Shown here: piece by piece, positions 1,889 through 54,794 of the stretch | Position numbering within the stretch: position 1 is the stretch's first letter | Layout of the letters: each line of letters starts with the position of its first letter | Assembly (NCBI GenBank): GCA_016192985.1 | Contig: JACPTC010000017.1 | Coordinates: 65,766 to 129,765, forward strand | DNA: 64,000 nucleotides | Reading direction: 5' to 3' | Origin: Candidatus Woesearchaeota archaeon | GTDB taxonomy: Archaea > Nanobdellota > Nanobdellia > Woesearchaeales > GW2011-AR4 | Translations under genes and position numbers: made by a program | Notes under the pieces: generated by a model | The model's database searches: none | What the model saw: only the letters and a program-made list of their open reading frames with translations | What the model was told of the DNA's origin: nothing

Positions 1889-4267
1889 TCATACAATCCT
1901 GAAATTCGGCAGCGGAACAATAAATCTGCCGCCTTTTTCCCTCCATTCTTTTTCTCTTTCAATAAACTCCTTTAAGAAGGCATAGGGTAGCACTAGGAAA
2001 TAATCTGCTTTTTTCCTTGCTTCTTCTTCAGACATTATCGGAATCATTGTGCCTATTGTACACTTATTCCACTTTTCAGGGCTTTTGTCAGCAGCTCCCT
2101 CAATAAGCTCATTTGTAAGCCCGTAATACTGAAGAATGGTATTCCCCTTTGTTGATGCACCATACACATAAACCTTTTTGCCTTTCTTGACTTCTTGCCT
2201 AATAAATTCCACACACCTCTTTTTATTTTCCTCAATTCTTCTAAAAAATGCCTCGTAGTCCTCTTTTGTGAATTTTTCATCAAACAAAATGCTCCCTTTA
2301 TTGTAATGCCTCGCATATAAGCGGTAGGAACCGCCATTAACATCATTCTCCTCTATCTTAAAAATTTCCAAGCCATTTTTCTCAAAAAGGTATTTAAGAG
2401 ACTCAATGGAATAATACTCAAGATGCTCATGGCAATTATGCACTATGGCGTTTGATACAAGATAAGTTTCATCTTCGGTTTCAATGTTGTAAACCAGATT
2501 GTCATATTTTTTAAAATTAACACTTTTTACTGGAGCTAAAATATAGTTATTCTTATAGATAACATGGCAATTTTCATTACCTTTGTGTTCATAACCAAAT
2601 ATTTGCCCCAATACTTTTGATGTACCTCGTAATTGCCAAGAATCTTTTGATATTACTTCTCCACTTCTTATCTTTCTTGGATAAGGTTTCACATAGCTTA
2701 TGCCAAGCATTCCACCCAAAGATGCGGTTAGGAGTTGAACCTGTAACGCAAGAGTTTTAGATGAGGTGTGGAAATGCACCTTGTTTCCTTTGATGTAACC
2801 GTCACCATCAAATAATCCACGTAAGAAGGCTATTTTAATCTCTTCTGGCGAAAACATAATAAAATCTGGAACATGCTTGTTAATAGCCCCTTTTCCCACC
2901 AATTTAGGAAGAGCACGCGCTAAGGCAGCACAAACAACACGGACTTCAATAGAATTTCTGTCATTATAAGAAATAATGCTTGTTTTGTATTCCAGAGTTT
3001 TGAATATGTAACTTATTCTTTTTAATAGATTAGTTTCCTTTTTGTTTATAGTAAAACAAACATATGGGTTGTTGACTTTACCACCTATATGCCCTTCTGC
3101 TACATATAATCCAAGTAACCATGCAGTATCATTATTTATAGGTAGCGATGACAAACCACTTCTATAGCCACGACTATTTATTTGATTGAATTCTGTCAAG
3201 TCTATTTTATCCAAAAATTTGTTATGTATCAGTTTTGGGATAACAACAAAATCTGCTCTTCTAATTTCTTTTGCTGGAACCCACTCTAATTTGTAGTTAT
3301 CTAGTTTTGTTTTTAATTGCATACAATCATGTCTAAACCATTCTTTTTTAACAATTTTAATAGGGTGTTCAGGCGTTACCTCAATAGCTTCCAAATACAT
3401 TGGTTTAATTTTGACAATATCACCTTTAAAATGACGACTAATTGTATTTCTAATTTCCACTAATGTTCCACCATTTCCAATAGCGTAATTGCCTTTGGCT
3501 AATTTACTAATTGGTTTATTATCGCCTAAAATTATAGTGTCTGGTTTGACGCATATATTCCCAACATCGTTTTTTTCCAGCATATTCTTAAGGCACATGA
3601 GTTGAGCAACGAAAATGCCGTCTTCAGCCATTGCCTTAGCAGAGTCAGCAACAAACTGGTTTGGGTCTTCCATGTCATAAAACATTCCAATAGCGGTTAT
3701 TGCCTTTGCTTTCCCTGTGCCTAATTTTTTGTACGCATCATAGCTCCAAAAATCATGTATAATCAAATCACAATTCTGCCTGAGCTCGTTTATGAGGTTG
3801 TCAGCAGGCTCGCATCCTATTTTTATAATTCCTTTTGGATAAGATTTCAACAATGTCCCGTCATTAGCGCCAATATCCAAAACTATATCCCCTTCTTTCA
3901 GATTTGCCATTTTTGAGACAGTTTCGGTTATTTCGCGCAACGCTCTTTTCATTGTTTCCGTAAATCCTGAATGGTACCAGTAAAATTTGGAATAAAGCAG
4001 TTCCTGGGGAGCTGTGTGCCTCAATTGCAAAAGCGAACAATCTTCACAAAGAACCAATTCCAGCGGAGCTTTCATATGCTTGGAATGATCTTCCATTTTT
4101 ATAAAGTTGCTTACATACAAATTGCCCAAGGAGAAAATTGAAATAATATTGCTGGAATAGCATAATCTACAGGCTTTTATCATTGTGTAAGGCATCTGCT
4201 CCTGGTTGCTGTGAACAGCGGACAATGGAATTGTTGCCATTTTATTAATCATTAACAGGAAAACCAC
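1889..4267 (-). CDS. NDP-hexose C-methyltransferase (TylCIII-like) interrupted by an intein
   Basis: N-terminal Zn-ribbon CRLCYSS...CEDCS, class I MTase motif VLDIGANDGT, and a C-terminal NDP-hexose C-methyltransferase (TylCIII)-like domain. The mature host is 419 aa after removing the 373-aa intein. Likely real start is M25 at 4195. Confidence 0.75.
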   Translation of the reverse strand: MVFLLMINKMATIPLSAVHSNQEQMPYTMIKACRLCYSSNIISIFSLGNLYVSNFIKMEDHSKHMKAPLELVLCEDCSLLQLRHTAPQELLYSKFYWYHSGFTETMKRALREITETVSKMANLKEGDIVLDIGANDGTLLKSYPKGIIKIGCEPADNLINELRQNCDLIIHDFWSYDAYKKLGTGKAKAITAIGMFYDMEDPNQFVADSAKAMAEDGIFVAQLMCLKNMLEKNDVGNICVKPDTIILGDNKPISKLAKGNYAIGNGGTLVEIRNTISRHFKGDIVKIKPMYLEAIEVTPEHPIKIVKKEWFRHDCMQLKTKLDNYKLEWVPAKEIRRADFVVIPKLIHNKFLDKIDLTEFNQINSRGYRSGLSSLPINNDTAWLLGLYVAEGHIGGKVNNPYVCFTINKKETNLLKRISYIFKTLEYKTSIISYNDRNSIEVRVVCAALARALPKLVGKGAINKHVPDFIMFSPEEIKIAFLRGLFDGDGYIKGNKVHFHTSSKTLALQVQLLTASLGGMLGISYVKPYPRKIRSGEVISKDSWQLRGTSKVLGQIFGYEHKGNENCHVIYKNNYILAPVKSVNFKKYDNLVYNIETEDETYLVSNAIVHNCHEHLEYYSIESLKYLFEKNGLEIFKIEENDVNGGSYRLYARHYNKGSILFDEKFTKEDYEAFFRRIEENKKRCVEFIRQEVKKGKKVYVYGASTKGNTILQYYGLTNELIEGAADKSPEKWNKCTIGTMIPIMSEEEARKKADYFLVLPYAFLKEFIEREKEWREKGGRFIVPLPNFRIV
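2435..3553 (-). mobile_element. Intein with LAGLIDADG homing-endonuclease domain in the C-methyltransferase
   Basis: Starts with Cys (...VGNI|CVKPDTIILG), block B TPEHP, LAGLIDADG motifs LLGLYVAEGHIGG and LRGLFDGDGYI, ends ...AIVHN followed by +1 Cys (CHEHLEYYS). Host flanks rejoin into a conserved NI-HEH motif. Confidence 0.8.
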
Positions 4268-4271
4268 ATTT

Positions 4272-5000
4272 TTAATTCTTGCTGGTTCCTATCGCAATTA
4301 GTCTGTCCCCTATAGGGAAAATAAATTTGTTCTCAACATACTTGTACCACCAATAAATTAATTTGTTGAGTGCTGGGTTTAAAGCGCCGTAAGGATATTC
4401 CTTTTTTTTTGTTATAAGCAAGTATATCGTTGGAATGAGGCAAAAAAAATTATAATATGCCAGCTTTATGTCAGAATAGCCTGCTTTCTCAAGCTTTTCC
4501 CTGAGGAGTTTTTTTGTATACCTTTTTGTGTGCCCTATCCTTCTATCCCTCTCAGTGTACAGCCATTCGAATGTAGGCATGTCAAAAACCAATATCTTGC
4601 CATTGTTTTTAAGAACCCTTCTTGCTTCAGCCATCATCCTTTCCTCATGCTCTATGTGCTCCAGAACACCTGCAAAAAGAACCGCATCAAACTTTTCTTT
4701 TGGATGAATCTTTTCAAGCCTTATGCACTCAAAGCGCACTTTCAGCTTGTTTTTTTTTGCTTTGTCTTTTGCAAGCTTGATAAGCCTAGGGCTGATGTCA
4801 ATGCCTGTTACGTCAAGCCCTTTTCCTGCCAGATAAACAGATACTTTTCCCAAGCCGCACCCGACATCCAATATACGGTAGGCATTTATGCTCTTGAGCA
4901 GCTTATAAATAGCTTCTGCTCTTTGCTCATTGTATAAGGGTGTTTCTCTGTCCAGCGCCATCTCAGCTGCTTCAGTTTCATATTGCTCCTGCCTGTTCAT
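4272..5000 (-). CDS. Class I SAM-dependent methyltransferase
   Basis: Motif I ILDVGCGLGKVSVYLA, DxD post-I, VLFAGVLEHI motif; 242 aa. Confidence 0.7.
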   Translation of the reverse strand: MNRQEQYETEAAEMALDRETPLYNEQRAEAIYKLLKSINAYRILDVGCGLGKVSVYLAGKGLDVTGIDISPRLIKLAKDKAKKNKLKVRFECIRLEKIHPKEKFDAVLFAGVLEHIEHEERMMAEARRVLKNNGKILVFDMPTFEWLYTERDRRIGHTKRYTKKLLREKLEKAGYSDIKLAYYNFFCLIPTIYLLITKKKEYPYGALNPALNKLIYWWYKYVENKFIFPIGDRLIAIGTSKN

Positions 5001-5045
5001 ATTTTTATGGTACTAACCAAATTATTTAAATATATCTGCTTGATT

Positions 5046-5765: not shown

Positions 5766-5766
5766 T

Positions 5767-11489: not shown

Positions 11490-12728
11490 TTACCTGTTTC
11501 TGAAATCTTCCATCGTTTCAGTTAAAGCATCTATAACTCTTTTTATCTCCCACTCCCTCATCTGAGGGGAAATTGGCAGGCTCAGCTGCTCGTTAAACCA
11601 GGCACGCTCAAGATTAGGACATTCACCCATGCCATGGCCCCTCATGCGCATTATGCCGCCTAGGTGCATTGGCCAAAACCTTATTACGATGTGTATGTTG
11701 TATTTTTCCTCTATATATTTAACCAAATCGTTCCTGTTGATTTCACCTCCATAATCCAAGAAAAAAGTAAAAAGGTGCCATGCATGTTTACACCCTGGCA
11801 GAATCTTTACTTTTCTTAAGCCTTTAATATTATCGATAGCATCATTGTATCTATTGGCAATATTTTCCCTGATAGAATTAAATCTGTCAAGCTTCTTTAG
11901 TTGCACTCTGCCTACTGCCGCTTGCGGTGTAGACATCCTGTAAGTTTTTCCAACCTCCATTATGCTTTTCCACTCATAGTCCCATGCGTCTCCTGGGTGC
12001 ATGAATGCAACTGATTTCGGCTTTGGATAGTCACCAAGATTTGACGCCTGCCTTTTTATTCGCTCTCCATAAGGGAAATTTGTGCGCAATCCTTGTGCAA
12101 TCTCATGCCATTCCCTTCTATTTGATACAATCATGCCTCCTTCGCCAAGTGTTGTAATGTTCTTAAGAGTTGAAAATGAAAAGCACGCAATATCGCTGTC
12201 GCTGCCTATCTTTTTCCCTTTGTATTCTGCCCCAAGCGCATGGGCAGCGTCCTCGATTACAACTATACCATGCCTATGTGCAATTTCTCTTATTGGGACA
12301 ATATCTGCAGGATTACCACCATGATGAGTTATATATATCGCTTTTGTCTTTTCTGTAATTAAGGACTCTATCTTGTCCGCATCTATGTTTAGTGAGTCAG
12401 GATCCACATCTGCAACCTTAATGGTTACATTGCGCTCAAGAAGAGGAGCGTAAGCAGCCCAGAACGAGTTGCCCTGGCAAATAACCTCATCCTTGTCAGT
12501 CAGGTTTAAAATCTGCATAGCTATATGGAGGGCAGCACCGCATGAGCTTACTGCAACAGCATGCTTCACATTGCAGTATTCCGCAAATTCCTTTTCAAAC
12601 AATTCAACTTCTGGACCTCTTGTTAATGGCTGTCCAGATTCAATAACCCTTTTTATGGCATCAAGCTCTTCCTGCCCTAATATAGAACCAACAGGGTATT
12701 CTTCTATCTTAGGGCTTGCTTCTTTCAT
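11490..12728 (-). CDS. DegT/DnrJ/EryC1-family PLP-dependent sugar aminotransferase
   Basis: 412 aa; DIACFSFSTLKNITTLGEGGMIVSN, HAVAVSSCGAALHIA. Confidence 0.75.
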   Translation of the reverse strand: MKEASPKIEEYPVGSILGQEELDAIKRVIESGQPLTRGPEVELFEKEFAEYCNVKHAVAVSSCGAALHIAMQILNLTDKDEVICQGNSFWAAYAPLLERNVTIKVADVDPDSLNIDADKIESLITEKTKAIYITHHGGNPADIVPIREIAHRHGIVVIEDAAHALGAEYKGKKIGSDSDIACFSFSTLKNITTLGEGGMIVSNRREWHEIAQGLRTNFPYGERIKRQASNLGDYPKPKSVAFMHPGDAWDYEWKSIMEVGKTYRMSTPQAAVGRVQLKKLDRFNSIRENIANRYNDAIDNIKGLRKVKILPGCKHAWHLFTFFLDYGGEINRNDLVKYIEEKYNIHIVIRFWPMHLGGIMRMRGHGMGECPNLERAWFNEQLSLPISPQMREWEIKRVIDALTETMEDFRNR

Positions 12729-13381
12729 TTTTCCAAATCTTTTTCTTTAAAAATATGCAGTACATACTTATTTCCCATATGCACAAAGAAAGCAGGATAG
12801 CGTTTGTTGTCCACAACCCTAAGCAGATTAAACTGCTCACGTATTGTCTTGTCTATATTAAGCTCACTATCCTTTAAAGTTCTTCTCTTGCAAAAGGTGG
12901 GATTGCCAGCTTGCTTTTTTGGCTTTAAATTGGGATAAGAATCTAAAAACCTCAAAACAAGCTCAAATACCTTAAAAGTTTGCTTATGCCTGATTTCGTC
13001 ACTTAGCTCGTGGCCTTCAAAAATTATAGGCTCCTGAAAATAATAGTCACCGCTATCAATTTTTTCTGCTGCCTCAAATAAAGTGATGTAAATAACATTT
13101 TTTCCTTCAAGTATTTGATTGACAAGAGCAGCGCTTCCTCTCCCTTCTGGCAGTTTGCTTGGATGCACCACTATATTGTGCTTGTTAAGCCCCAGCATCT
13201 TATTTGACAATATTGAATTGCAGCCCAGAATAAACAATATGTCCCCTTTCTTTATGTGAGCAGGGTTGGAAATGAATTCCAATTCATGCCCTCGGCCTTT
13301 AATATTCTTAATAAGCTCCGAAACATAGTCATTGAGGTAGCTGTCTTTGTTGTCAATCATTACAGTTATTTTTAATGGCAT
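12725..13381 (-). CDS. Formyltransferase (sugar N-formyltransferase candidate)
   Basis: HPSKLPEGRGSAALVNQILEG matches the formyl-transferase HxSLLPxxRG motif; adjacent to the aminotransferase. Confidence 0.65.
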   Translation of the reverse strand: MPLKITVMIDNKDSYLNDYVSELIKNIKGRGHELEFISNPAHIKKGDILFILGCNSILSNKMLGLNKHNIVVHPSKLPEGRGSAALVNQILEGKNVIYITLFEAAEKIDSGDYYFQEPIIFEGHELSDEIRHKQTFKVFELVLRFLDSYPNLKPKKQAGNPTFCKRRTLKDSELNIDKTIREQFNLLRVVDNKRYPAFFVHMGNKYVLHIFKEKDLEK

Positions 13382-24319: not shown

Positions 24320-25777
24320 ATGATGTCTGCTCTAAATGATTTTATGTCTATCCAATCAAGAATATTGAAGAATATAAGTTTTGTAAGCGCTGGCGAGCTA
24401 ATATCAAATTTTTTATCATATTTTCTAATCATTTTTATTGCCCGACTCCTCGGATCTGAAGGACTGGGAATTTACTCATTTGCATTCGCATTTGTTGGGC
24501 TGTTTGCGGTCTTCAATGATTTTGGACTTTCAACTTTTTTCGTTAGAGAAGTTTCAAAGAAAAGGGAAGATATAGAAAAATATTTTGGCAATTACGCCGC
24601 AATGAGGCTCATCTTGTGCATTATTTCGGCTGTATTGCCTTTGGTATTCATTTTATTCTTAAAGAGGTCGTCGTATGTTGTTGGTGTTGTGTATCTGGCT
24701 GCCGTAGCACTTTTCTTCCAAAATTACTCTTATATTCCGAGAAATACGTTTCTGGCTTATCAGGTTATGCAGTATGATTCTGCCATCAAGATAATCGAAA
24801 GAATTGTTGCATTTACGTTAGGTTTGTACGTGCTCTGGGCAGGCTACGGATTGCTGGCGTTTCTTATAGTGCTTGCTATATCCAATTTTATAGCGTATAT
24901 AATGTCTGTGATATTTCTAAGAAAGATAAATATAAAGTTTAGATTCAAAATAGACTATAAAATATGGAAATCAATGCTCAAAACTTCTTGGCCATTTTGG
25001 CTTTCAATGATTTTTTTACAAATTTATTTTCAGCTAGACACAGTGATGCTTTCTTTTATGAAAGGATACGAGGCTACTGGATTGTATAATGCAGCTTACA
25101 AGTTGATATTTGTTGCTGATAAAATACCTTTGATAATTGGTCTTGTATTATTTCCTGTTATGTCTGAGCTATACGCTAGCATGTCAAAGGGACTATTAAA
25201 AAAAACACTTCAAAAAGGCTCACATTTAATGATAATTTTGAGTCTTCCATTGATTTCAGGCACAGTTATTTTGGCAGACCGGATAATATTATTTATCTAT
25301 AAATCCGATTTTAAAGGCTCTATTATTGCCCTTCAAATACTGATATGGACTACCTTTTTCATGTTTCTGAGTTATCTTATCGGCTGGTTCCTTAATGCAA
25401 CTAACAGGCAGAAGATTTTTACATATACTACGGGCTTGTGTCTCGCTTTTAATGTAATACTAAATTTTATGCTTATACCCTCCTTTGGTTACACTGGAGC
25501 TTCGATAGCGACGCTTGTAACCGCCGCATTGAATTTTTTATTATTATACCATTTTAGTATCAAATCCGGATATTTTGTAAATATTTTCAAATTAATTTTA
25601 AAACCCCTAATTGCCGCTATACTGATGGGAGCATTGATAATCTTTTTTGGGAAAGATATTCATCTTCTCGCATTGATACCTGTATCAGCTCTTTTTTATT
25701 TTTTATTGCTTATTCTTATGAAAGATGTCAAAAAAACGGACTTTGAGGATTTCCTTTCAAAGAAAAGTTTTAAATAA
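24320..25777 (+). CDS. Wzx-like oligosaccharide flippase (MOP/polysaccharide biosynthesis protein family)
   Basis: 485 aa, about 12-14 TM helices, polysacc_synt-like organisation. Confidence 0.6.
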   Translation: MMSALNDFMSIQSRILKNISFVSAGELISNFLSYFLIIFIARLLGSEGLGIYSFAFAFVGLFAVFNDFGLSTFFVREVSKKREDIEKYFGNYAAMRLILCIISAVLPLVFILFLKRSSYVVGVVYLAAVALFFQNYSYIPRNTFLAYQVMQYDSAIKIIERIVAFTLGLYVLWAGYGLLAFLIVLAISNFIAYIMSVIFLRKINIKFRFKIDYKIWKSMLKTSWPFWLSMIFLQIYFQLDTVMLSFMKGYEATGLYNAAYKLIFVADKIPLIIGLVLFPVMSELYASMSKGLLKKTLQKGSHLMIILSLPLISGTVILADRIILFIYKSDFKGSIIALQILIWTTFFMFLSYLIGWFLNATNRQKIFTYTTGLCLAFNVILNFMLIPSFGYTGASIATLVTAALNFLLLYHFSIKSGYFVNIFKLILKPLIAAILMGALIIFFGKDIHLLALIPVSALFYFLLLILMKDVKKTDFEDFLSKKSFK

Positions 25778-25799
25778 GCCCCAAAAATCCGCAGATAAA

Positions 25800-28439
25800 A
25801 TGCCTACAATACTCGGCTTTCATAGCCATAATCTTACAGGCGCTGCGCTCGTCAGTGACGGAAGGATTATTTCTGCAGTCAATGAGGAAAGACTAGACCG
25901 AATTAAAAACAGCCCTGCATTTCCTGAGAAATCTATAAAAGAAGTTTTAAGAGAAGGAGAGATGAAAAATGAGGAAGTAGACTCTATTGCGATAGGTGAC
26001 CTTATTTACAAATTTCCCGCCATTAGTGAATACATCAAGAGATTATTTGTAACTTCCCCAAAATACCACTACAATATAATTGGAAGGATTAAGCATATAT
26101 GGAATATGCAATCAAAATGTTCCAAGGCAAATTTTAGATACTCAAACAAAAATTTTCCTGGCAAAAATATCAATAATGTAGAGCATCATGTCGCGCATGC
26201 CGCTTCTGCCCATTTTACTAGCGGCAATGATAAAAACTTGATAGTGACTATTGACGGGTGGGGCGATAAACTGTCAAATGGCGCATACATCGGCAATAAA
26301 GCTAGCATTAATAGATTATACAGCTCTTATGATTTGGACTCATTGGGCTACTTTTATAGCAGAATCACTGTTGCTTTGGGCTTCAAGCCCCACAGGCACG
26401 AAGGAAAGATAACAGGACTCGCTGCTTATGGAAAGCCAAGCAGCGATTTAACTAAATTAATGGACAAAATGGGATATTTTGATAGAAGGAACATGAGATT
26501 CAAGTTCAATCTCGGTGAAGATTATTTCCCAACGCTGGATGTCAAGGAAAAGCTTATACATAAACTATCAAAATTTAAGAAAGAGGATGTTGCTGCAGCA
26601 GCCCAAAAATTTCTTGAGGACACAACAAGGCAGTATGTAACAGCTTTAATAGATAAAGAAGGCAGCCATCACCTAGTATGTGCTGGAGGAATCTTCGCTA
26701 ATGTTAAAATGAACCAGATAATCAAGGATTTGCCAGGAGTTAAAAGCATTTTTGTTCATCCAAACATGGGGGACGAAGGCTTGTGCCTTGGATGCGCCCT
26801 AAAAACCTATAATGATAAGTATGGGTATATGAATGTTAGATTAAAAGATGTTTATTTTGGTCCAGAATTTACAGATCAAGAAATTAAAGAAGAGCTTGAC
26901 AAGTTCAATCTGGAATATGAGCACTTAAAAGACATTGAGTACCAAGCTGCAGAACTGCTGTCCAAAGGCAAGGTGGTTGCCCGCTTCAATGGCAGAATGG
27001 AGTATGGGCCAAGAGCTTTAGGCAACAGAAGCATTCTTTATCAGACACAAGACAAAAGTGTAAATGACTGGCTTAACAAGCATTTGCATAGGTGTTATGA
27101 TGATAAAACAGAAATTTTGACTAGTGAAGGTTGGAAGCTTATTAAGGACATTTCAGATGGCGAAGTTGTAGCAACGCTCAATCCAAAAAAAGACAGCCTC
27201 GAGTTTCAAAAAATCACCAAAAAAATTTCATATGATTATGACGGGCAAATGTTTAAGATTAAAAACAAGAGGATAGATCTGGTTATAACTCCTAATCATA
27301 ATCTATGGGTTAAAAAAAAGCATGGATCATCCTTTTCATTTATAAAAGTGGATGATGTTGCAAAAATAAGAACATATCATTATCAAAAAAAAGGAGGAGT
27401 TGATTGGAAAGGTAAAAGACGCGAAAGCTTCAGATTAGGAAGAAAAAAAATCCTTATGGATATTTGGTTGGAATTTTTAGGATATTACCTTTCCGAAGGC
27501 AGTGTTTATTATGATGGATATGGTCATTATAGGGTTTCCATTGCGCAATCAAAGAATTCTCGGCATTTTATCTCAATAGAAAGATGCTTAAAAAAACTTC
27601 CATTTAAGTTTTTTTATTCAAAAAAAGAATTTATTGCCAATAATAAAATGCTTTTTGATTATCTAAAAAAGCTTGGCAAATCTGGAAATAAGTATATCGC
27701 TAGAGAGTTTATGTCTTTAGAGAAGAAACAGCTTATGATTTTATTTAAAGCTTTAATTGACGGAGACGGCAACATAAGGGGAAACGGCTATAGATACGCT
27801 ACTACCAGCAGATTGCTTGCTGATAATGTTCAAGAGCTAGCGTTTAAATTAGGTTATAGTGCTTATTTATCCATGCAGAAGAAAAGTCTTAATCCAAAGC
27901 ATAATCAGTTGTATATGGTTAAGATAGGAAGAAGTCCTGTGGCTACTGTAAGAGCTAATCAAATAACTAAAATTCCATATAAGGGGAATGTATATTGTGT
28001 TACCGTGCCTAATCATATTATCTATGTAAGGCGCAACGGCAAGAGCGTTTTTTCAGGAAACACAGAATTTATGCCTTTCGCGCCAGTAACCATAGCAAAA
28101 TATGCAGATAAATGCTACCAAGGCATAAGGGGGGCGGAATACACAGCAAAATTTATGACTATCACATTTGACTGCACAGACTGGATGAAAGAGGCTTGTC
28201 CAGGCGTTGTGCATATCGATGGAACTGCAAGACCGCAGTTGATTGAAGAATCCGATAATCCAAGCTATTTCAGGATAGTTGATGAATACAGGAAAATAAC
28301 AAATGTACCGTGCCTGATAAACACAAGCTTTAACATGCATGAAGAGCCTATTGTATGCACACCAAATGATGCAATAAGGGCATTTAAGGACGGCAATTTA
28401 GACTATTTGGCTATAGGAAATTATCTTGCAAGAAATTGA
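25800..28439 (+). CDS. Carbamoyltransferase (NodU/CmcH family) interrupted by an intein
   Basis: N-terminal MPTILGFHSHNLTGAALVSDGRII...EERLDRIKN and the conserved ...LNKHLHR|TEFMPFAPV motif split by a 323-aa insert. Mature host is about 557 aa. Start chosen at the MPTIL ATG at 25800. Confidence 0.8.
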   Translation: MPTILGFHSHNLTGAALVSDGRIISAVNEERLDRIKNSPAFPEKSIKEVLREGEMKNEEVDSIAIGDLIYKFPAISEYIKRLFVTSPKYHYNIIGRIKHIWNMQSKCSKANFRYSNKNFPGKNINNVEHHVAHAASAHFTSGNDKNLIVTIDGWGDKLSNGAYIGNKASINRLYSSYDLDSLGYFYSRITVALGFKPHRHEGKITGLAAYGKPSSDLTKLMDKMGYFDRRNMRFKFNLGEDYFPTLDVKEKLIHKLSKFKKEDVAAAAQKFLEDTTRQYVTALIDKEGSHHLVCAGGIFANVKMNQIIKDLPGVKSIFVHPNMGDEGLCLGCALKTYNDKYGYMNVRLKDVYFGPEFTDQEIKEELDKFNLEYEHLKDIEYQAAELLSKGKVVARFNGRMEYGPRALGNRSILYQTQDKSVNDWLNKHLHRCYDDKTEILTSEGWKLIKDISDGEVVATLNPKKDSLEFQKITKKISYDYDGQMFKIKNKRIDLVITPNHNLWVKKKHGSSFSFIKVDDVAKIRTYHYQKKGGVDWKGKRRESFRLGRKKILMDIWLEFLGYYLSEGSVYYDGYGHYRVSIAQSKNSRHFISIERCLKKLPFKFFYSKKEFIANNKMLFDYLKKLGKSGNKYIAREFMSLEKKQLMILFKALIDGDGNIRGNGYRYATTSRLLADNVQELAFKLGYSAYLSMQKKSLNPKHNQLYMVKIGRSPVATVRANQITKIPYKGNVYCVTVPNHIIYVRRNGKSVFSGNTEFMPFAPVTIAKYADKCYQGIRGAEYTAKFMTITFDCTDWMKEACPGVVHIDGTARPQLIEESDNPSYFRIVDEYRKITNVPCLINTSFNMHEEPIVCTPNDAIRAFKDGNLDYLAIGNYLARN
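27093..28061 (+). mobile_element. Intein with LAGLIDADG homing-endonuclease domain in the carbamoyltransferase
   Basis: Cys1 (R|CYDDKTEILTSEGW), block B TPNHN, LAGLIDADG motifs FLGYYLSEGSV and LIDGDGNI, block F VYCVTVPNHIIYV, terminal ...SVFSGN followed by +1 Thr. Penultimate residue is Gly rather than His. Confidence 0.75.
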
Positions 28440-44918: not shown

Positions 44919-45293
44919 GGCAGGGTTCGAATAAGCCGCCTTTTGTCAGGCCCTTAGTGCAATTACAAAATTGCGATAGCCTGTCTTAGCATTAAACTAA
45001 GCGTCTTTAATCAGACTTGCACCAGCCAGGACTCGCCGTTTCATCCATGCTGCAAAAACGTCCGTTGGTTATCTGAATCTTCTCGCGAAGATCTTCGCAA
45101 ACATCATCCTTGGCTTGCATGCGAATTTGCTCGCAGGCTAGCATTCATTCACAGCGGTCTCGTTTCTGAGCGGTTGCCGTCAATTACTAGACCTCACTTT
45201 CGCGAGTAGCTACGTTGGGTGGGCGGACTTTCCTCAGCGCTTCAACAGCAAAAACTCGCTGTATAGGCACCGAAGCTAAGTACTAACCCTGCC
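44919..45293 (-). ncRNA. rnpB: RNase P RNA (archaeal type A-like)
   Basis: Minus strand has CR-I-like GAGGAAAGUCCGCCCACC and CR-V-like ACAAAAGGCGGCUUA. The 5' GGCAGGGUU pairs with the 3' AACCCUGCC (P1). About 375 nt. TATA box TTTATATA about 26 nt upstream. Confidence 0.75.
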
Positions 45294-47528: not shown

Positions 47529-47542
47529 ATGATTATTAAATA

Positions 47543-50500
47543 TTATTCCTTCTCTGTACATTTCTGCACATTCTTTCTGACTTTTTGTAGTTTGCAATTA
47601 CCATATTTTGAGCATTCTTTAGGCGTCAAATCAGAACATTGTACCTTTATACATTTCTCTAATTCTTTAGTTTGTGTCCATCCGCATTTTCCATCGTTTT
47701 GTCTTTCGCATTTGCCAAATTCTTGATAGCAAGCGTATTTTGGTTTGTATTCGCATGTAGTAGCCATTTTGTCCATGTAAGAAGCCTCTCCGCAAAGCTC
47801 GCCAGAGCAGCCTCCAGCTTTGCATGGCTCAGGTTTATCAACGCATTTTATCCTATTCTTTCTTGCTTTTATGACTTCGCAATTATCGTATTTTTGGCAC
47901 TCATCTATTATTAATTCAGAGCATTTTCTTTTTACGCAAGTGCCATCTTTGCAGCCGCTCGCACATCTAAACATATCTCTTTGCGGATTATTGTTGGCAT
48001 CGCAGGAAAGCTCGATTACATAACATTCTTTGCCGTCGCAATAATCCTTATGCTCATAATTGCCTGCAGCTACTTTTACTGCACATTTGTCAGGCACAGG
48101 AGACAAATCCCAGCCAGGGTAATTTGTTGCAAGTGTTCCTTTGGTATAGTATTCTTTTCCGCCATCGGAGTCCACACATTTAAGTGCAGATGTAATCTCA
48201 ATTTCTTTTGTTGCCTTAATGCCTTTACCACTTATTTTGTCGAAAGTTACCCTATATTTTCCAGTTTTTACGCTAGTGCCTTTGCAATCAAGCCTTGCTG
48301 GCCAATCTCTGGAATCGCATGCAGAATAATCCATTTGGTTCCATACTCCTACATATTTCTGTTCTCCCGGTTTGATAGGTATTTCTGATATAATGAATGC
48401 GCAATCAAAAACCGGCCCATGATTTCTTACCATATTCCCTTTCAAATCGGTAATTGTAATCAAGGGATTGCAAGTGCTGTCTGTTTCCTGGCCTGTTTTT
48501 GAGCTATAATATAAAATTTCATCCCCATTGTTCTTTACAAAAATATCTATCTTTTCTCCAGCGTAATAACTTTCTTTTTGCGTTACTACTTCTAACCCAT
48601 TTTGAGGACTGATACATGCCCCATTTGAGCAGCCTTTAGCTCCGCAACCTTGTATTTTTCTTTTAGCAACGCCATTTTCACAATAAAACTCAGTCATTTC
48701 GCTTAAAAGTCCATTTCCTAAATCCATTCCAGAACACTCATCCGCAACTTCTATGGCATCAAAAAAAGCGTCAGGAAGACCGTCCCCTTTCACCACTCCT
48801 GGCAAATTCGAAGCCTTAATGCTACCTTTAACGTAGTAATTTATTCCTTCATCAGAATCTGTGCAATTTCCTTCTTGCACTGCGACAAAGTCACTGCAAA
48901 CGCTATACTTGTTCCCATGGCAAAGCTGAAGTTTCTGCCCGTTGCTTATTCCAAAGAAGCCGCTTAATGGTTGCGTTACCTTGATGTTTTCTCCAGAAGT
49001 GCAGAAATAATTAGGTGTGTGCATAATGGCTTTTTTATCATTCAAAAGGTGTACACATACATCAAAGTTTTTGGAATAAGTAACTTCCAAACTAGAATCT
49101 ACTATTTTAATTGATTGAAGTCTGACTTCCTCTGCTTCACAACTGTCAGTCTCAAAAGAACCACTTGAAGTAAAGCCAACAACCAAGGGCTTTCTGTTAT
49201 GGCCTCTTTCGCGCACCCATTCAACTTTATACTCATAATTTTTTCCTTGCACGGCTTCATTCCAACTGACTGAACTGCTGTCAGGCTGTCCAGACCATTC
49301 AGCTCCTCCAGCGATAGTTATGTCAACGCCCTTCGATTTTTCGTCAAATGGCCAATTAATCAATTGCCATGAAATAACAACATGAGGCAACCCATTCTTG
49401 CAAGTGGCAGTAGCACTTGAAGTTGCTGAAGGTTCGGAAGATGCTTGGACTTCAATTGGAACGCTTCGAACCAGCTCTTTAAACCCATTCTCTCCATAAT
49501 AAATAAGTTCGTAAGTGCCTGGGTTTTTTGGAGCTTGCAAAGCGCCGGTTCCTGACTTTAATCCCTTAATATAAAAAAATCCAAATTTGTCATTCCATTG
49601 CGCTCCTTTTGGAGCAAAGGCAATGTAGTCATTTTCAAATGCAGTGCCTAAATTGTCCCAATAAACAGAAAGTTCCTCTCCTGCTTTTACATCTGTTTTT
49701 GATGGTTTTATATTAACAAGTGAAACAACTTCAAAACTTGTACTAACCACGTTATTATCTCTGTCAAACTCTTTTAAATTATTTGAAGGGTCAAGCTTTA
49801 CAATGAGATTTTTCATTCCTTGTGTTGGGAACGTAAATATAAAAGCAGACATACAACTCTCGCCGGGTTGTAAAACAGTTGATTTGCCGCACGTATCAGA
49901 CTTATGAATATTTTGAATTCCATCATCATTATTGGAGTAAATATACAGCGTAGGCGAAGCAACAGCAGTGCCAATATTAACAACTTTAAAAGCTACAAGA
50001 ACTTCCTTATTTGATTCTCTGATGGTCGGTGATATAAAAAAGCCTTCAGGCACGGCAAGGTCTGGAAGACTGGCTGAAAGACTGCAAGTAGCATCAACTT
50101 CAAAAGAATTCACGCCACATTTACCTGTGTCTTTGTCACATTTATTAATACATGACGTTTCAGCGTAACTCTTCCAAGTTCTGGATGGCTTACAAGAAGT
50201 TTCGCTACCCTGTAATTCACTATAACCATCATGACATGCCCATTTTGCGTACCTAAATCCCACTGGTTGTTGTTTTTCAACGCATTTTTTCCTATTCTTT
50301 CTAACCTTTTTAAGCTCGCAATTATCGTATTTTTGGCACTCATCTATTATTAATTCAGAGCATTTCATGCACCTATCATTTCTGCAGCCATTTGGACACA
50401 TATAACTTGTTTTTTTACCTACATCCCCTTCGCAATAATACTCAGTTAGTTCGTTGTCCAAGCAAACATCATAATCCTTAGCTTCTTTTTTTCCTAATAT

Positions 50501-50635
50501 TACGAAACCCTTTTCGAAATAATTTTTTCCACCATCAGAATCTGTACATATCTTGGGCGGTGGAGGCGGTGGAGCTTTTGAGTTTACTGGCTGCACAAAT
50601 ACGTAAACAAACAAAATTGACAATAACGACAGCAA
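47543..50635 (-). CDS. Large secreted cysteine-rich repeat protein (surface protein candidate)
   Basis: 1030 aa. Signal peptide followed by PPPPPPK. Three C(T/V)DSD(G/E)G..Y..KG modules. Two near-identical KCSELIIDECQKYDNCE modules plus a third divergent copy; many Cys. Confidence 0.6.
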   Translation of the reverse strand: MLSLLSILFVYVFVQPVNSKAPPPPPPKICTDSDGGKNYFEKGFVILGKKEAKDYDVCLDNELTEYYCEGDVGKKTSYMCPNGCRNDRCMKCSELIIDECQKYDNCELKKVRKNRKKCVEKQQPVGFRYAKWACHDGYSELQGSETSCKPSRTWKSYAETSCINKCDKDTGKCGVNSFEVDATCSLSASLPDLAVPEGFFISPTIRESNKEVLVAFKVVNIGTAVASPTLYIYSNNDDGIQNIHKSDTCGKSTVLQPGESCMSAFIFTFPTQGMKNLIVKLDPSNNLKEFDRDNNVVSTSFEVVSLVNIKPSKTDVKAGEELSVYWDNLGTAFENDYIAFAPKGAQWNDKFGFFYIKGLKSGTGALQAPKNPGTYELIYYGENGFKELVRSVPIEVQASSEPSATSSATATCKNGLPHVVISWQLINWPFDEKSKGVDITIAGGAEWSGQPDSSSVSWNEAVQGKNYEYKVEWVRERGHNRKPLVVGFTSSGSFETDSCEAEEVRLQSIKIVDSSLEVTYSKNFDVCVHLLNDKKAIMHTPNYFCTSGENIKVTQPLSGFFGISNGQKLQLCHGNKYSVCSDFVAVQEGNCTDSDEGINYYVKGSIKASNLPGVVKGDGLPDAFFDAIEVADECSGMDLGNGLLSEMTEFYCENGVAKRKIQGCGAKGCSNGACISPQNGLEVVTQKESYYAGEKIDIFVKNNGDEILYYSSKTGQETDSTCNPLITITDLKGNMVRNHGPVFDCAFIISEIPIKPGEQKYVGVWNQMDYSACDSRDWPARLDCKGTSVKTGKYRVTFDKISGKGIKATKEIEITSALKCVDSDGGKEYYTKGTLATNYPGWDLSPVPDKCAVKVAAGNYEHKDYCDGKECYVIELSCDANNNPQRDMFRCASGCKDGTCVKRKCSELIIDECQKYDNCEVIKARKNRIKCVDKPEPCKAGGCSGELCGEASYMDKMATTCEYKPKYACYQEFGKCERQNDGKCGWTQTKELEKCIKVQCSDLTPKECSKYGNCKLQKVRKNVQKCTEKE
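47841..47927. repeat. Intragenic direct repeat, copy A, within the Cys-rich gene
   Basis: About 87 nt, with a perfect 49-nt core cgcaattatcgtatttttggcactcatctattattaattcagagcattt identical to copy B. Confidence 0.8.
50280..50366. repeat. Intragenic direct repeat, copy B, within the Cys-rich gene
   Basis: Matches 47841-47927; encodes the repeated KCSELIIDECQKYDNCE module. Confidence 0.8.
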
Positions 50636-51152: not shown

Positions 51153-51176
51153 CTCGTGTATTCCGAATACGTTAAA

Positions 51177-52254: not shown

Positions 52255-52259
52255 TTAAA

Positions 52260-52442: not shown

Positions 52443-52468
52443 CTTTTTTACATTATTTTATACATTAC

Positions 52469-53359: not shown

Positions 53360-53381
53360 GAATCTGATGCAAATGCATGTT

Positions 53382-53693
53382 TCAGCCGAATAAAGCGCCT
53401 AATCCAGCTGCTGCGGCCTCCTCACTTTTCTTCTCTTCAGCCACTTTCTTCTTTTCATCAACTTTTTCAGCCTTGTGCTCGCCATGTGCTACCGGCGCTG
53501 CCACTGCAACCTGAGCTACTGCTGCCTTTTCAATCGCTTCTTCTATGTTGACTCCTTCCAAAGCTGCGACAAGTGCCTTTGCCCTTGCGTCGTCAACCTT
53601 GACCTGTGCTGCTTCTAGCACTTTCTTGACATTCGCTTCATCAACCTTTTGGCCTGCCTTGTGAAGCAACATAGCTGCGTATATGTACTCCAT
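53382..53693 (-). CDS. rpl12: Ribosomal stalk protein P1 (L12e)
   Basis: [29 protein letters not shown]... Ala/Glu/Lys-rich hinge, C-terminal GLGALFG. Confidence 0.85.
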
Positions 53694-53696
53694 CGT

Positions 53697-54794
53697 CTAT
53701 ACCTCCAATTTGGTCCAAATAATTTTCTGGCCAATTTTGTTTGATTTTGTTATTAAACCTTTCTTATATAAATCTTTTAATGGCATGTTTACATTACTTT
53801 TTCTAACGCCTAATTTGAAAATTAATTCTTCTGTAGAAAGATTTTCCGATGAAAGCAAGTCAATAATTTCTTCCTTTGTTTCGTTATTTTTTCTTCTTAC
53901 ACCATTATAATTATTTCTAATTTCAATTAATTTTGATAGTTTATTTAACTTCGTGGGATGATTAAATCCAATTACTTGAAAATATTTTTCAATCTCTTTT
54001 GGTTTTATTGTTAAATAAAAATATGATTCTGATTTTTCAGCTATTTGAACATCGCTAAAATCTAATTTTCCTGTTAGTAATTCTTTTATAGATAATAAAA
54101 TATTTTTATTAGTTGAATAAATACTTATCTTATGATTCAAATCTACATTTCCTTCGTCATCAGCAAAAGCCCTGATTAGAGCTACGGAAAATTCTATTGG
54201 CAAATCTTTAATTCTTTCCGGGATTATGGCATTTCGTGTTTTGAAATCAATATTATAAAAGAATTTAATTAAGTCCGCAATAACTCTTGGGGACCTTAAA
54301 TCGTAACAGCCTGAATTTCTATAATAGATTTTTTCATCTACATCACCAAAAACAGATGAAATTAGTTTTTGGAAATTATCTATTAAGTCTTTATTTGAAT
54401 TTGTGTATATAGGAATATTATTCTTGTTGACGCTTCCATCTCCAATTAAATGTGCAATCAGGGCAAATAACTCTGGACTTTCGATTATCGGTAGTTTAGG
54501 ATTTTTAACCGCTAAGCTCGAATTAGGGCCTTTATAGGTGATAACATTGCTTTCAATTTCATTCCAATCAAGACCTCTTTTATTAACTATTTTTTTAATA
54601 TGGACTAAAGGTATGAATAGATTTAATTTTTTCCAAAAATGAATTACTTGAGGAGATACAGACAAGAAATTTGCTAATTTTTTTAACGAGCCAAAATAGT
54701 TTATACTATCATCTATAAATTTATCATTATCGCTAAGTAATATCCTAATCCTATCTGCTGGAAAATCTTTCAAATGAAATTTTTTAATTACCAT
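53697..54794 (-). CDS. Free-standing LAGLIDADG homing-endonuclease-like protein with flanking HTH domains
   Basis: Two LAGLIDADG motifs (LIAHLIGDGSV, LIRAFADDEGNV), an N-terminal HTH-like region and a C-terminal winged-helix-like region. Start codon directly abuts the P0 stop (TAAATG) and its stop lies 3 nt before the P1 start. Confidence 0.7.
   Translation of the reverse strand: MVIKKFHLKDFPADRIRILLSDNDKFIDDSINYFGSLKKLANFLSVSPQVIHFWKKLNLFIPLVHIKKIVNKRGLDWNEIESNVITYKGPNSSLAVKNPKLPIIESPELFALIAHLIGDGSVNKNNIPIYTNSNKDLIDNFQKLISSVFGDVDEKIYYRNSGCYDLRSPRVIADLIKFFYNIDFKTRNAIIPERIKDLPIEFSVALIRAFADDEGNVDLNHKISIYSTNKNILLSIKELLTGKLDFSDVQIAEKSESYFYLTIKPKEIEKYFQVIGFNHPTKLNKLSKLIEIRNNYNGVRRKNNETKEEIIDLLSSENLSTEELIFKLGVRKSNVNMPLKDLYKKGLITKSNKIGQKIIWTKLEV

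Follow-up and report, generated by a model that had tools for sequence, protein, structure and literature searches.

Two putatively mobile inteins and a candidate free-standing homing endonuclease gene within 64 kb of a woesearchaeotal genome

The free-standing homing endonucleases of T4-like phages have a well-established lifestyle. Their Seg and Mob genes are ORFs lodged between conserved genes, are patchy among relatives and co-convert flanking markers, and I-TevI carries an accessory helix-turn-helix (HTH) DNA-binding module (PMC3943268, PMC3384342). In the LAGLIDADG family, I-DmoI and I-Tsp061I are archaeal, monomeric and intron-encoded; fungal mitochondrial and algal chloroplast intergenic ORFs and yeast HO lie outside introns and inteins, and HO has an added DNA-binding domain (PMC7487136, PMC3384342). 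Inteins such as PI-PkoII, TliVMA, PI-PfuI and PI-SceI, with hosts of the DNA polymerase, V-ATPase and ribonucleotide reductase type, consist of a Hint domain for splicing and, nested within it, a two-motif endonuclease. An archaeal intein of UDP-glucose/GDP-mannose dehydrogenase is known from 10 cases and falls in COG category M (PMC4760082, Table 2).

The stretch of DNA analysed here (the window, 64 kb) contains three LAGLIDADG elements, intein 1, intein 2 and the free-standing gene X (Table 1), at the places given in a preliminary description, which ran exactly from the last codon of intein 1 (position 2435, minus strand) to the ATG of X (54794). A six-frame motif scan of the window and Pfam scans of 49 of its 53 ORFs of at least 150 aa found no further intein or LAGLIDADG element. 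All data derive from metagenome-assembled genomes. X resembles the phage genes in its position between conserved genes, patchiness, flanking-marker co-conversion and accessory HTH module, but those are GIY-YIG or HNH enzymes of viral genomes, whereas X is a LAGLIDADG protein of an archaeal chromosome. Its location outside introns and inteins and its added DNA-binding domains recall the fungal and algal ORFs and HO, which are, in contrast, organellar or eukaryotic nuclear. To our knowledge, none of the latter targets a ribosomal-protein operon spacer or provides the gene that follows with its ribosome-binding site. The two inteins have the build of PI-PkoII and its like, but their hosts are a sugar C-methyltransferase and a carbamoyltransferase.

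Table 1. Coordinates of the three elements, their host genes and neighbouring features in the window
Feature	Position	Strand	Basis or remark
Intein 1 precursor gene, NDP-sugar C-methyltransferase (TylC3/TcaB9 family)	1889..4267	-	Unbroken 792-codon ORF
Intein 1, 373 aa (precursor aa 239-611)	2435..3553	-	Splice residues, intein-less relatives
Intein 1 LAGLIDADG motif 1, AWLLGLYVAEGHIG, acidic Glu	3083..3124	-	Pfam LAGLIDADG_3
Intein 1 LAGLIDADG motif 2, IAFLRGLFDGDGYI, acidic Asp	2792..2833	-	Motif scan
Intein 2 precursor gene, NodU/TobZ-type carbamoyltransferase	25725..28439	+	Single 904-codon ORF
Intein 2, 323 aa (precursor aa 457-779)	27093..28061	+	Splice residues, intein-less homologues
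Intein 2 LAGLIDADG motif 1, WLEFLGYYLSEGSV	27465..27506	+	
Intein 2 LAGLIDADG motif 2, LMILFKALIDGDGNI	27732..27776	+	Motif scan
rpl1, opening gene of the L1-L10-X-L12 operon within the window	55911..56591	-	Pfam Ribosomal_L1
rpl10 (stalk protein P0), stop codon abutting the X ATG	54795..55907	-	Pfam Ribosomal_L10, RL10P_insert
X, free-standing candidate homing endonuclease gene, 365 aa	53697..54794	-	LAGLIDADG_3 E 8.8e-8, HTH_5 (Pfam)
X N-terminal Cro/YdaS-like HTH	54627..54689	-	Weak Pfam matches YdaS_toxin, P22_Cro
X LAGLIDADG motif 1, LFALIAHLIGDGSV	54429..54470	-	D119, G120 invariant (20 family members)
X LAGLIDADG motif 2, SVALIRAFADDEGNV	54144..54188	-	D212, D213, E214 invariant (20 family members)
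X C-terminal winged HTH, ArsR/MarR-like	53700..53879	-	HTH_5 26.3 bits (cut-off 22)
X last 52 nt (codons KSNKIGQKIIWTKLEV + stop), remnant in two X-less relatives	53697..53748	-	blastn
rpl12 Shine-Dalgarno GGAGGT, inside last codons of X	53701..53706	-	
rpl12 (stalk protein P1), directly downstream of X; 'type A' 5' end ATGGAGTACATATAC	53382..53693	-	

Two inteins in a glycan gene cluster

In both precursors, the break in the host domains coincides exactly with the element, and the residues of the splice junctions are intact. The 792-aa precursor exhibits Methyltransf_13, Methyltransf_23 and Methyltransf_14 separated by LAGLIDADG_3 (E 9.9e-16) and Intein_splicing; phmmer aligns the known structures of the C-methyltransferases TylC3 and TcaB9 (4rv9, 3ndi) to aa 30-237 and 613-790 with a gap between, and the sole PDB match of the precursor outside methyltransferases is PI-PkoII (E 1e-10). 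In the 904-aa precursor, LAGLIDADG_3 (E 5.5e-7) and Intein_splicing separate Carbam_trans_N from Carbam_trans_C, and solved carbamoyltransferases (7xb6, 9s2t, 3ven) match in two blocks, aa 32-454 and 781-902 (phmmer). The Intein_splicing scores, 28.9 and 29.6 bits, lie under the curated cut-off of 35.8. Intein 1 begins with Cys1 (CVKPDTIIL), contains block B TPEH and ends in VHN; the +1 residue is the Cys that opens the host motif CHEH, and intein-less relatives are contiguous at this point (NDVGN[ILV]/CHEHLEYYS, the slash marking the site). The corresponding features of intein 2 are Cys1 (CYDDKTEIL), TPNH, a terminal SGN and the +1 Thr of the host RTEFMPFAP motif, and an intein-less carbamoyltransferase that is 73% identical (P0258) reads NKRLNR/TEFMPFAP. 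Its penultimate residue is Gly in place of His, and the SGN ending is common to related inteins at the same motif (P0138, P0260, P0262 and P0264). Judged by sequence, both elements are full-size inteins, with a Hint splicing domain and a nested two-motif endonuclease.

Both inteins are AT-rich at third codon positions (GC3 0.24 and 0.29, against 0.42 and 0.38 for their exteins) and patchily distributed. The methyltransferase site is filled in 5 of 77 close homologues, and allelic inteins occur in P0036, P0037, L087, L088, L089 and L108. Of the 150 best cluster representatives, about 6 carry an intein at the carbamoyltransferase site; the closest one (73% identical) is empty. Intein and extein similarities to relatives are discordant: L088 is 71–74% identical to the intein 1 precursor in the extein but 48% in the intein, whereas L108 shows 60–63% and 58%. 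Intein 1 is an in-frame insertion before the CHEH motif, and intein 2 one just ahead of TEFMPFAP, a motif of its host's C-terminal domain; post-translational splicing would leave both host enzymes working, and cutting of intein-less alleles would allow both inteins to spread.

A literature search found no published reports of inteins in sugar C-methyltransferases or carbamoyltransferases, and we know of no such case. The hosts are glycan-tailoring genes, as first described, in one large cluster of sugar-nucleotide and glycosyltransferase genes that extends over window positions 1 to ~40 kb (Pfam scans). Such non-informational hosts are not confined to this lineage, as the nearest non-allelic relatives of the inteins reside in genes of this kind in other archaea and bacteria, namely those for NuoB, thioredoxin, radical-SAM, ThyX, NDP-sugar dehydratase and peptidase M23 proteins. 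UDP-glucose dehydrogenase is likewise a known archaeal intein host (PMC4760082). It gives precedent for glycan-pathway hosts, being a cell-envelope/sugar-nucleotide gene, although the enzyme and insertion site differ and the cases are from Euryarchaeota (PMC4760082).

Gene X in the ribosomal stalk operon

X consists of an N-terminal HTH, a double-motif LAGLIDADG core and a C-terminal winged HTH; a Hint domain, splicing blocks and a flanking extein are all absent. Its GC content is 0.27 and its GC3 0.21, against 0.37 for the window. In the AF2 model (pLDDT 91.5), the N-terminal HTH comprises helices 23-34, 37-44 and 48-56, and the winged HTH comprises a β hairpin and three helices. The best PDB fold matches (Foldseek) are the intein endonuclease domains of PI-PkoII, TliVMA, PI-PfuI and PI-SceI, as well as I-DmoI and I-Tsp061I (TM 0.65-0.71, target-normalised, probability 1.0). 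In contrast to the latter two, which are intron-borne and only ~19% identical to it, X is a separate, free-standing ORF flanked by protein genes on both sides, and it carries ~170 additional residues in its two HTH modules. Sequence and model together suggest that X, one of 34 family members found, encodes a homing endonuclease whose catalytic core resembles that of I-DmoI and lies between two HTH modules.

All 11 of 11 full-length copies lie between rpl10 and rpl12. Only 3 nt separate the X stop codon from the rpl12 ATG in the window; the X 3′ end meets the rpl12 start in the full-length loci and overlaps it in L167. X-less loci likewise have GGAGG equally far from the rpl12 ATG. In the 80 species representatives whose L10 is 55–85% identical, X was present in L021 alone, and its sisters L023 and L057 (flanks 87–89% identical at the nucleotide level) have a 126–153-nt spacer instead. 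The X-bearing lineages are scattered in an L1+L10 tree (neighbour joining, ~520 aligned columns, calculated without support values). Two otherwise X-less loci retain remnants of the X 3′ end (blastn), at 5071-5122 in L009 (98% identity) and at 2375-2424 in L025 (94%).

The similarities of X and rpl12 disagree with those of host markers. Between the window and L021, identity is 69% for L1, 77% for L10 and 84% for X, whereas between L021 and L170 it is 85%, 87% and 79%. L009 and L170 are 79% identical in L10 and 95% in L12, and the first 12 nt of L021 rpl12 carry donor-like changes relative to the sister genomes. The dS of X is 0.62 versus 1.8 for L10, a difference partly confounded by the extreme AT bias of X (GC3 0.21). 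In deep comparisons, X diverges at about the L1/L10 rate, as would also be expected if it had long been inherited vertically and been lost many times. A pure parasite should leave some copies with internal decay (frameshifts), but none were seen, and no relatives of X were found in IMG/VR viral contigs.

These features, together with a dN/dS of 0.13 for X, fit the classical homing cycle, here at a target not described before. X would be co-transcribed and translationally coupled with the stalk operon, its last codons serving as the rpl12 ribosome-binding site. The protein would cut X-less alleles near the rpl10/rpl12 junction, whether carried by another genome copy or by incoming DNA, repair would copy X and a short rpl12 5′ stretch into the cut allele, and later deletions would remove X, at times sparing its last ~50 nt.

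Alternative readings and kinship of the elements

Homing by X has to be weighed against domestication as a DNA-binding regulator of its own stalk operon. WhiA (DUF199), a bacterial regulator derived from a LAGLIDADG endonuclease, is a precedent for such a fold with an HTH turned regulator (PMC3384342), and WhiA structures are among the fold matches of X. The database label of X ('ArsR family transcriptional regulator'), its HTH and winged-HTH domains, its fixed, translationally coupled position in an essential operon, the full length of all family members found, a dN/dS of 0.13 and the divergence rate noted above all point the same way. However, 79 of the 80 related species representatives lack X, among them the nearest ones and both sisters of the X-bearing genome, and the remnants in L009 and L025 mark it as dispensable. 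Moreover, the metal-binding acidic residues lost in WhiA (PMC3384342) are invariant in X, and the incongruence with host markers runs against a resident regulator, which we consider unlikely. By analogy with I-TevI, X may combine nuclease and autorepressor roles. The same pattern could arise if metagenome assembly or binning had produced chimeric contigs, or had drawn X-bearing and X-less loci from unrelated organisms; every dataset is of this origin, and the titles of several records are clearly wrong ('Methanosarcinales' or 'Aminicenantes' for Woesearchaeota-like loci). Nevertheless, the exact X protein occurs on 4 contigs, the longest of 131,650 bp, 11 independent assemblies, produced in different projects, share the L10-X-L12 order, and reading frames are continuous across all junctions. 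Binning errors are immaterial because the compared markers sit on the same contig, and we regard an artefact as a negligible prospect. Anatomy, conserved catalytic residues, site specificity, patchiness, remnants, incongruence and the predicted fold thus favour X as a homing element.

For the inteins, the question is whether they are retained as conditional-splicing switches that control the methyltransferase and carbamoyltransferase post-translationally in glycan tailoring. Because both interrupt conserved, probably catalytic motifs, the precursors should be inactive until spliced; both hosts lie in one glycan cluster, and other inteins have been proposed to splice conditionally (PMC4760082, PMC6195587). 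However, selfish inteins generally insert at conserved motifs (PMC2814812), the elements are absent from most close homologues, the nearest ones included, and at least one allelic copy (P0035) lacks the N-terminal splice junction. Both endonuclease domains keep their catalytic residues, which is characteristic of mobile inteins and not of co-opted ones and makes a switch improbable. The preliminary description further linked all three endonuclease domains through their co-occurrence and shared two-motif architecture; the latter is real but merely defines monomeric LAGLIDADG enzymes. Duplication, domain swapping or recent exchange within the genome or lineage would account for three elements within 64 kb, all AT-richer than their surroundings, and for the weak similarity of inteins 1 and 2 (30% over 139 aa, E 3e-8). 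When the endonuclease domains alone are compared (phmmer), however, intein 1 scores 25 bits against intein 2 and 16 bits against X, and similarity between intein 2 and X is undetectable, whereas outside relatives, numbering from 34 to more than 100 per domain, give far higher scores (family medians 68, 72 and 194 bits). Each element is most similar to allelic elements from other organisms (intein 1, 44–87% identity; intein 2, 44%; X, 40–84%), and X has no Hint remnants. Kinship of the three domains is therefore refuted at the level of sequence relationship, and a link of this type is highly improbable.

Since each domain is nearer to outsiders than to the other two, independent acquisition is indicated rather than exchange within the genome. 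The window thus probably holds three unrelated selfish LAGLIDADG elements, acquired separately: two mobile inteins and the homing endonuclease gene X. The initial idea of intein and endonuclease-gene traffic in this lineage survives in part; the elements are neither related nor in hosts peculiar to the lineage, but each is patchy among close relatives, and X exhibits gain, loss remnants and gene-conversion footprints, supporting their movement in these archaea.

Two inteins within a glycan-biosynthesis island

The preliminary description claimed three LAGLIDADG elements in the window, and open reading frames (ORFs), Pfam matches and structural-homologue alignments agree that all three are real and lie at the positions claimed. 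A six-frame motif scan of the window, together with Pfam searches of 49 of its 53 ORFs of at least 150 aa, revealed no further intein or endonuclease. Two of the elements interrupt enzymes, one a sugar C-methyltransferase (intein 1) and the other a NodU/TobZ-type carbamoyltransferase (intein 2). The solved sugar C-methyltransferases TylC3 and TcaB9 match residues 30-237 and 613-790 of precursor 1 only, and solved carbamoyltransferases, including TobZ, match residues 32-454 and 781-902 of precursor 2. The host alignments contain in-frame gaps of 373 aa (intein 1) and 323 aa (intein 2), with host Pfam domains on both flanks.

Features of the window, with positions on its forward strand
Feature	Position (nt)	Strand	Size or score	Description
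Precursor 1	1889-4267	-	792 aa	Methyltransf_13/_23 and Methyltransf_14 split by LAGLIDADG_3 and Intein_splicing (Pfam)
Intein 1	2435-3553	-	aa 239-611	Starts at Cys (CVKPDTIIL); block B TPEH; ends ...VHN, then host Cys
Formyltransferase-like gene	12725-13381			Glycan island
Precursor 2	25725-28439	+	904 aa	Carbam_trans_N and Carbam_trans_C split by LAGLIDADG_3 and Intein_splicing (Pfam)
Intein 2	27093-28061	+	aa 457-779	Starts at Cys (CYDDKTEIL); TPNH; ends ...SGN, then host Thr
B12-binding radical-SAM enzyme	32632-33999			Glycan island
Asparagine synthase homologue	34288-36231			Glycan island
Archaeal SRP RNA	42224-42515	-	99.8 bits	In a stretch without a long ORF
Archaeal RNase P RNA	44919-45293	-	114.6 bits	In a stretch without a long ORF
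CARDB-domain protein	47543-50635	-	1030 aa	Secreted, cysteine-rich
rpl12 (P1)	53382-53693	-		Downstream neighbour of X; ATG 3 nt past the X stop codon
X	53697-54794	-	365 aa	LAGLIDADG_3 and C-terminal HTH_5 (Pfam); no splicing blocks
rpl10 (P0)	54795-55907	-		Upstream neighbour of X; stop codon directly before the X ATG
aIF5B/IF-2	60531-62300	+	589 aa	Uninterrupted

Each intein carries the N-terminal nucleophile and the T-x-x-H of block B (Cys239 and TPEH in intein 1, Cys457 and TPNH in intein 2). The C-terminal junction of intein 1 is HN followed by Cys, and that of intein 2 is GN followed by Thr, without the penultimate His; the same SGN ending occurs in the homologous proteins P0138, P0260, P0262 and P0264. 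The Pfam Intein_splicing scores, 28.9 and 29.6 bits, are both below the cut-off of 35.8. Homologues that are inteins of other hosts number 103 for intein 1 and 212 for intein 2, with E values down to 1e-139, and a PDB search with precursor 1 matched PI-PkoII at an E value of 1e-10. The LAGLIDADG motifs end in ...VAEG and ...FDGDG in intein 1 and in ...LSEG and ...IDGDG in intein 2; the terminal acidic residue is Glu or Asp in each of the four, so both endonuclease domains appear intact. In relatives without the intein, the sequence continues unbroken across the insertion points (marked here by a slash), as ...NDVGN[ILV]/CHEHLEYYS... in the methyltransferase and ...NKRLNR/TEFMPFAP... in the carbamoyltransferase, indicating that the +1 residues are native to the hosts and that the insertion sites are conserved motifs. 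The CHEH motif at the site of intein 1 aligns with the H/D-E-H of solved methyltransferases, and its Glu-His pair presumably corresponds to active-site residues of TcaB9. Inteins generally insert in conserved motifs (PMC2814812). By their sequences, inteins 1 and 2 are ordinary members of the LAGLIDADG-intein class and are predicted to splice.

Both inteins are sporadic among close relatives of their hosts. JGI metagenomes were searched for relatives of the methyltransferase N-extein; of the closest 80, 72 run through the site uninterrupted, five contain an intein at the same codon and three are cut by contig ends. L086, the nearest relative at 73% identity, has an empty site, and another at 73% identity (L087) has an intein 77% identical to intein 1. 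The inteins of L088 and L089 (71% extein identity) are just 46-48% identical to intein 1, and that of L108 (63% extein identity) is 58% identical, so that intein and extein similarity disagree. In P0035, a partial NCBI protein of 594 aa with an allelic methyltransferase intein, the last 8 N-extein and first 9 intein residues of the window copy are missing; this deletion takes out Cys1 and block A, precluding splicing by the standard route and leaving a decayed intein or a pseudogene. For the carbamoyltransferase, 1.84 billion cluster representatives were searched exhaustively without a profile and the best 150 were inspected. The best match, P0258 (558 aa, 73% identity), is intein-less, and only about six of these 150 representatives (P0259, P0260, P0261, P0262, P0264 and P0295) carry the intein. 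GC3 is 0.24 in intein 1 versus 0.42 in its extein, and 0.29 versus 0.38 for intein 2. The patchiness and the AT-rich third positions present the usual picture of selfish, sporadically distributed inteins.

The description of both hosts as glycan-tailoring genes is borne out by their neighbours, which encode NDP-sugar dehydratases and epimerases, DegT aminotransferases, glycosyltransferases of the GT1, GT2, GT9 and PMT types, a flippase and additional methyltransferases. The first ~40 kb of the window (1-42000) form a single glycan-biosynthesis island, which extends at least 4.6 kb further past the left end (contig L174) and is large given the small DPANN-type genome. Within the window, inteins occur only in glycan genes, and aIF5B/IF-2, a classical archaeal intein host, is uninterrupted. 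The nearest non-allelic relatives of intein 1 are inteins in NuoB, thioredoxin, radical-SAM, dCMP deaminase and SufB genes, mainly of Nitrososphaerales; those of intein 2 reside in ThyX, thymidylate synthase, NDP-sugar dehydratase, peptidase M23, GTP cyclohydrolase I and RuvC genes of archaea and Patescibacteria. These hosts show that metabolic genes are common homes for both intein lineages among uncultivated microbes. In a genome survey of archaeal inteins, the hosts were nevertheless replication and repair genes in 66.9% of cases and nucleotide-metabolism genes in 8.3%, and UDP-glucose dehydrogenase was the sole sugar-pathway enzyme among the top 15 hosts (PMC4760082). Our literature searches found no report of either insertion site and nothing relevant on carbamoyltransferase inteins or DPANN inteins.

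Elsewhere in the window, the CARDB-domain protein has no other family match, and contains repeated 'CSELIIDECQKYDNCE...' and 'CTDSDGG.NYY.KG' modules at both ends.

Identity of the LAGLIDADG gene in the stalk operon

The third element, X, is a free-standing gene in the L1-L10-L12 operon of the window, which is archaeal and 37% G+C. X itself is strongly AT-biased (GC 0.27, GC3 0.21). Its last codons contain GGAGGT, the ribosome-binding site of rpl12, and in X-less relatives GGAGG lies equally far from the rpl12 ATG. Among 5.8 billion proteins searched, 34 were relatives of X, most of them ~365 aa long and 40-84% identical. The two LAGLIDADG motifs of X end in ...IGDG and ...ADDEG. In 20 members that share 30-81% identity with the window copy, no variation occurs at D119/G120 and D212/D213/E214, where the two LAGLIDADG helices have their acidic ends. 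An AlphaFold model built from the alignment of these 20 members (mean pLDDT 91.5, pTM 0.88) was matched best by Foldseek to the endonuclease domains of the TliVMA and PI-PkoII inteins, I-DmoI and I-Tsp061I, with a probability of 1.0; WhiA ranked lower. The model also exhibits an N-terminal helix-turn-helix (HTH) and a C-terminal three-helix winged HTH.

In databases the family is named 'ArsR family transcriptional regulator', for which the sole basis is the winged HTH, one accessory domain (HTH_5, 26.3 bits versus a cut-off of 22, residues 305-350 only). ArsR/SmtB regulators are small proteins, essentially just a winged-HTH dimerization and DNA-binding domain. In X, that domain occupies the last ~60 of 365 residues, and the bulk consists of the LAGLIDADG core and the second HTH. 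In architecture, X is like WhiA, yet it lacks the defining features of that protein. WhiA has lost the catalytic acidic residues, with Arg and Gly in their places (PMC3384342), whereas D119 and E214 of X are invariant; and WhiA is universally present, whereas X is missing from 79 of 80 related species representatives and its bearers are scattered in the host tree. In its predicted way of working, X is akin to free-standing homing endonuclease genes carried by T4-type phages and by organelles, and its catalytic core is that of I-DmoI. On all sequence evidence, the 'ArsR'-labelled family is a free-standing LAGLIDADG homing endonuclease, for which a secondary regulatory role of the HTH domains is possible by analogy with I-TevI (PMC3384342). 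We found no literature report of a LAGLIDADG gene targeting an archaeal stalk-operon spacer, and nothing relevant on Woesearchaeota homing endonuclease genes other than rRNA group I introns.

Gain and loss of X between rpl10 and rpl12

In all 11 readable full-length loci (the window, L001, L003, L005, L021, L166, L167, L169, L170, L171 and L172), X is flanked by rpl10 and rpl12, with its end at the rpl12 start. Its stop codon is 1-12 nt ahead of the rpl12 ATG in nine of them, and the ORFs overlap in L167. The distance to rpl10 ranges from an overlap to ~1 kb that holds extra small ORFs: two on the reverse strand in L005 (3004-4000), and in L169 (1994-2497) one of 95 aa and one of 49 aa, the latter ribbon-helix-helix-like by eye. 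The 95-aa ORF was considered as a second rpl12 copy upstream of X, and was found to be unrelated. Thus the rpl10-proximal side of X gathers cargo, and the rpl12 side is fixed. An outlier, 26% identical and without the winged HTH, lies elsewhere.

A survey with the P0 N-terminal domain, covering a single genome for each species, gave 80 Woesearchaeota or Nanoarchaeota loci whose P0 is 55-85% identical to that of the window. L021 alone among them contains X, and in the ~20 closest relatives rpl12 begins 1-330 nt beyond the rpl10 stop. In a neighbour-joining tree of L1 and L10, calculated without support values, X-bearing lineages are scattered. L021 groups among L023 and L057, with flanks 87-89% identical at the nucleotide level; these sisters have a spacer of 126-153 nt versus 1,090 nt of X in L021. 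Many contigs that are 55-85% identical to the window across L1-L10-L12 have discordant titles, 'uncultured Methanosarcinales archaeon' for L008, L016, L017, L025, L029, L032 and others and 'Candidatus Aminicenantes bacterium' for L051, which probably reflects mislabelling or bin contamination in public metagenome-assembled genomes.

Archaeal P0 normally has a factor-binding tail in common with P1. Across the window and loci L001-L085, P0 is without the C-terminal ...GLGALFG, X present or not, and P1 retains it. The P0 tails extend 2 to ~440 residues beyond the conserved domain, and many are Lys/Glu-rich with a recurrent terminal ...L(x)KKGTLRK motif. Truncation of P0 by insertion of X was rejected because X-less relatives are equally tail-less and the window tail matches theirs.

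Losses and gains of X have left traces. Two remnant loci keep only the last ~50 nt of X, directly after the rpl10 stop: L009 (5071-5122) is 98% identical to nt 1047-1098 of the window X, and L025 (2375-2424) is 94% identical to the X 3' end. Both remnants apparently start at one X nucleotide, the upstream boundary in L025 being blurred by divergence, in different rpl10 contexts: rpl10 is long-tailed in one locus and short in the other, and the two are not sisters. This common start could reflect recurrent deletion at one point, selection keeping the rpl12 translation signals, or the spread of one resistant allele. Two alleles of the first 15 nt of rpl12 can be distinguished. All crown-clade X-bearing loci, both remnant loci and a few clean empty ones have type A (ATGGAGTAyATATAC, Ile4); most empty loci, the sisters of L021 among them, have type B (ATGGAATAyGTGTAy, Val4). 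Four of the first 12 nt of rpl12 differ between L021 and these sisters; at three of them L021 matches the window, and the remainder of the gene is sister-like. The rpl12 5' end of L021 thus reads as a short conversion tract; co-conversion of the whole gene was rejected because rpl12 nucleotide identity to the window is 76-86% across most of the clade and the donor-like sites are confined to those 12 nt. Whole-gene conversion of rpl12 is likely in L009, where L12 is 95% identical to that of L170.

Identity of stalk-operon genes and X between pairs of loci
Pair	L1	L10	X	L12
L021 vs L170	85%	87%	79%	88%
Window vs L021	69%	77%	84%	78%
L009 (remnant) vs L170	70%	79%	absent in L009	95%

We initially read X as a vertically inherited, domesticated operon gene because X identity tracked that of L1 and L10 in four occupied loci. 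This reading was dropped as the main explanation because 79 of 80 related species are without X; in the deep branches, X may have resided long and been lost many times. Purifying selection acts on X (dN/dS 0.13, window versus L021), and no frameshifted copy was observed among those examined. Its lower synonymous divergence, considered as proof of recent transfer, lends weak support, since a GC3 of 0.21 brings early saturation and the effect is partly compositional. A viral vector was also considered and rejected, as IMG/VR viral contigs contained no relative. Together, the remnants, rpl12 alleles, conversion tract, incongruence, selection and composition are the traces expected of a homing cycle, in which X would invade with co-conversion, reside under selection for activity and then be lost. 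Its apparent target would be the conserved ribosome-binding site and start region of rpl12. We consider it rather unlikely that X is more than a parasite, namely an HTH/LAGLIDADG/winged-HTH nuclease that is hard to delete, with the rpl12 ribosome-binding site in its last codons, and that may autoregulate the stalk operon; such a property would explain why the same final ~50 nt were kept in both losses.

Relationship of the three elements and implications

The three elements had been proposed to share an architecture indicative of active intein and endonuclease traffic in the lineage. In whole-element BLASTP comparisons, intein 1 is 30% identical to intein 2 over 139 aa (E 3e-8) and 27% identical to X over 192 aa (E 6e-5), and intein 2 is 24% identical to X (E 0.09). 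The endonuclease domains alone were also used as queries against all proteins collected in this analysis. In the list for the intein 1 domain, intein 2 ranked 125th with 25 bits and X 166th with 16 bits; the intein 2 domain did not retrieve X, and intein 1 came last for the X domain (14 bits). Median scores to their own outside families are 68 (intein 1), 72 (intein 2) and 194 bits (X), and each has its closest relatives among allelic elements of other organisms. The three are therefore no closer to one another than to outside members of the class, and the proposed link among them does not hold. The general intuition of mobile-element traffic in this lineage was right, with good evidence for X.

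The three elements overturn no current understanding. They correct the annotation of the X family from 'ArsR family transcriptional regulator' to free-standing LAGLIDADG homing endonuclease, and add two intein insertion sites, both in glycan-tailoring enzymes, to a record in which about three quarters of archaeal inteins are in replication, repair and nucleotide-metabolism genes (PMC4760082). The apparent target of X and its extra DNA-binding modules may interest meganuclease engineers. If X is hard to delete, its persistence in a cellular chromosome would be of a kind new for homing endonuclease genes, and the protein would be a meganuclease scaffold extended by nature, with a long composite target. 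The Woesearchaeota rpl10-rpl12 locus offers a natural and compact view of the homing cycle in archaea that have not been cultivated: sites that hold X, clean empty ones, remnants and conversion tracts are all represented. Homing requires DNA exchange between cells, and the locus can therefore serve as a marker of gene flow in this group, which has been studied almost solely through metagenomes.
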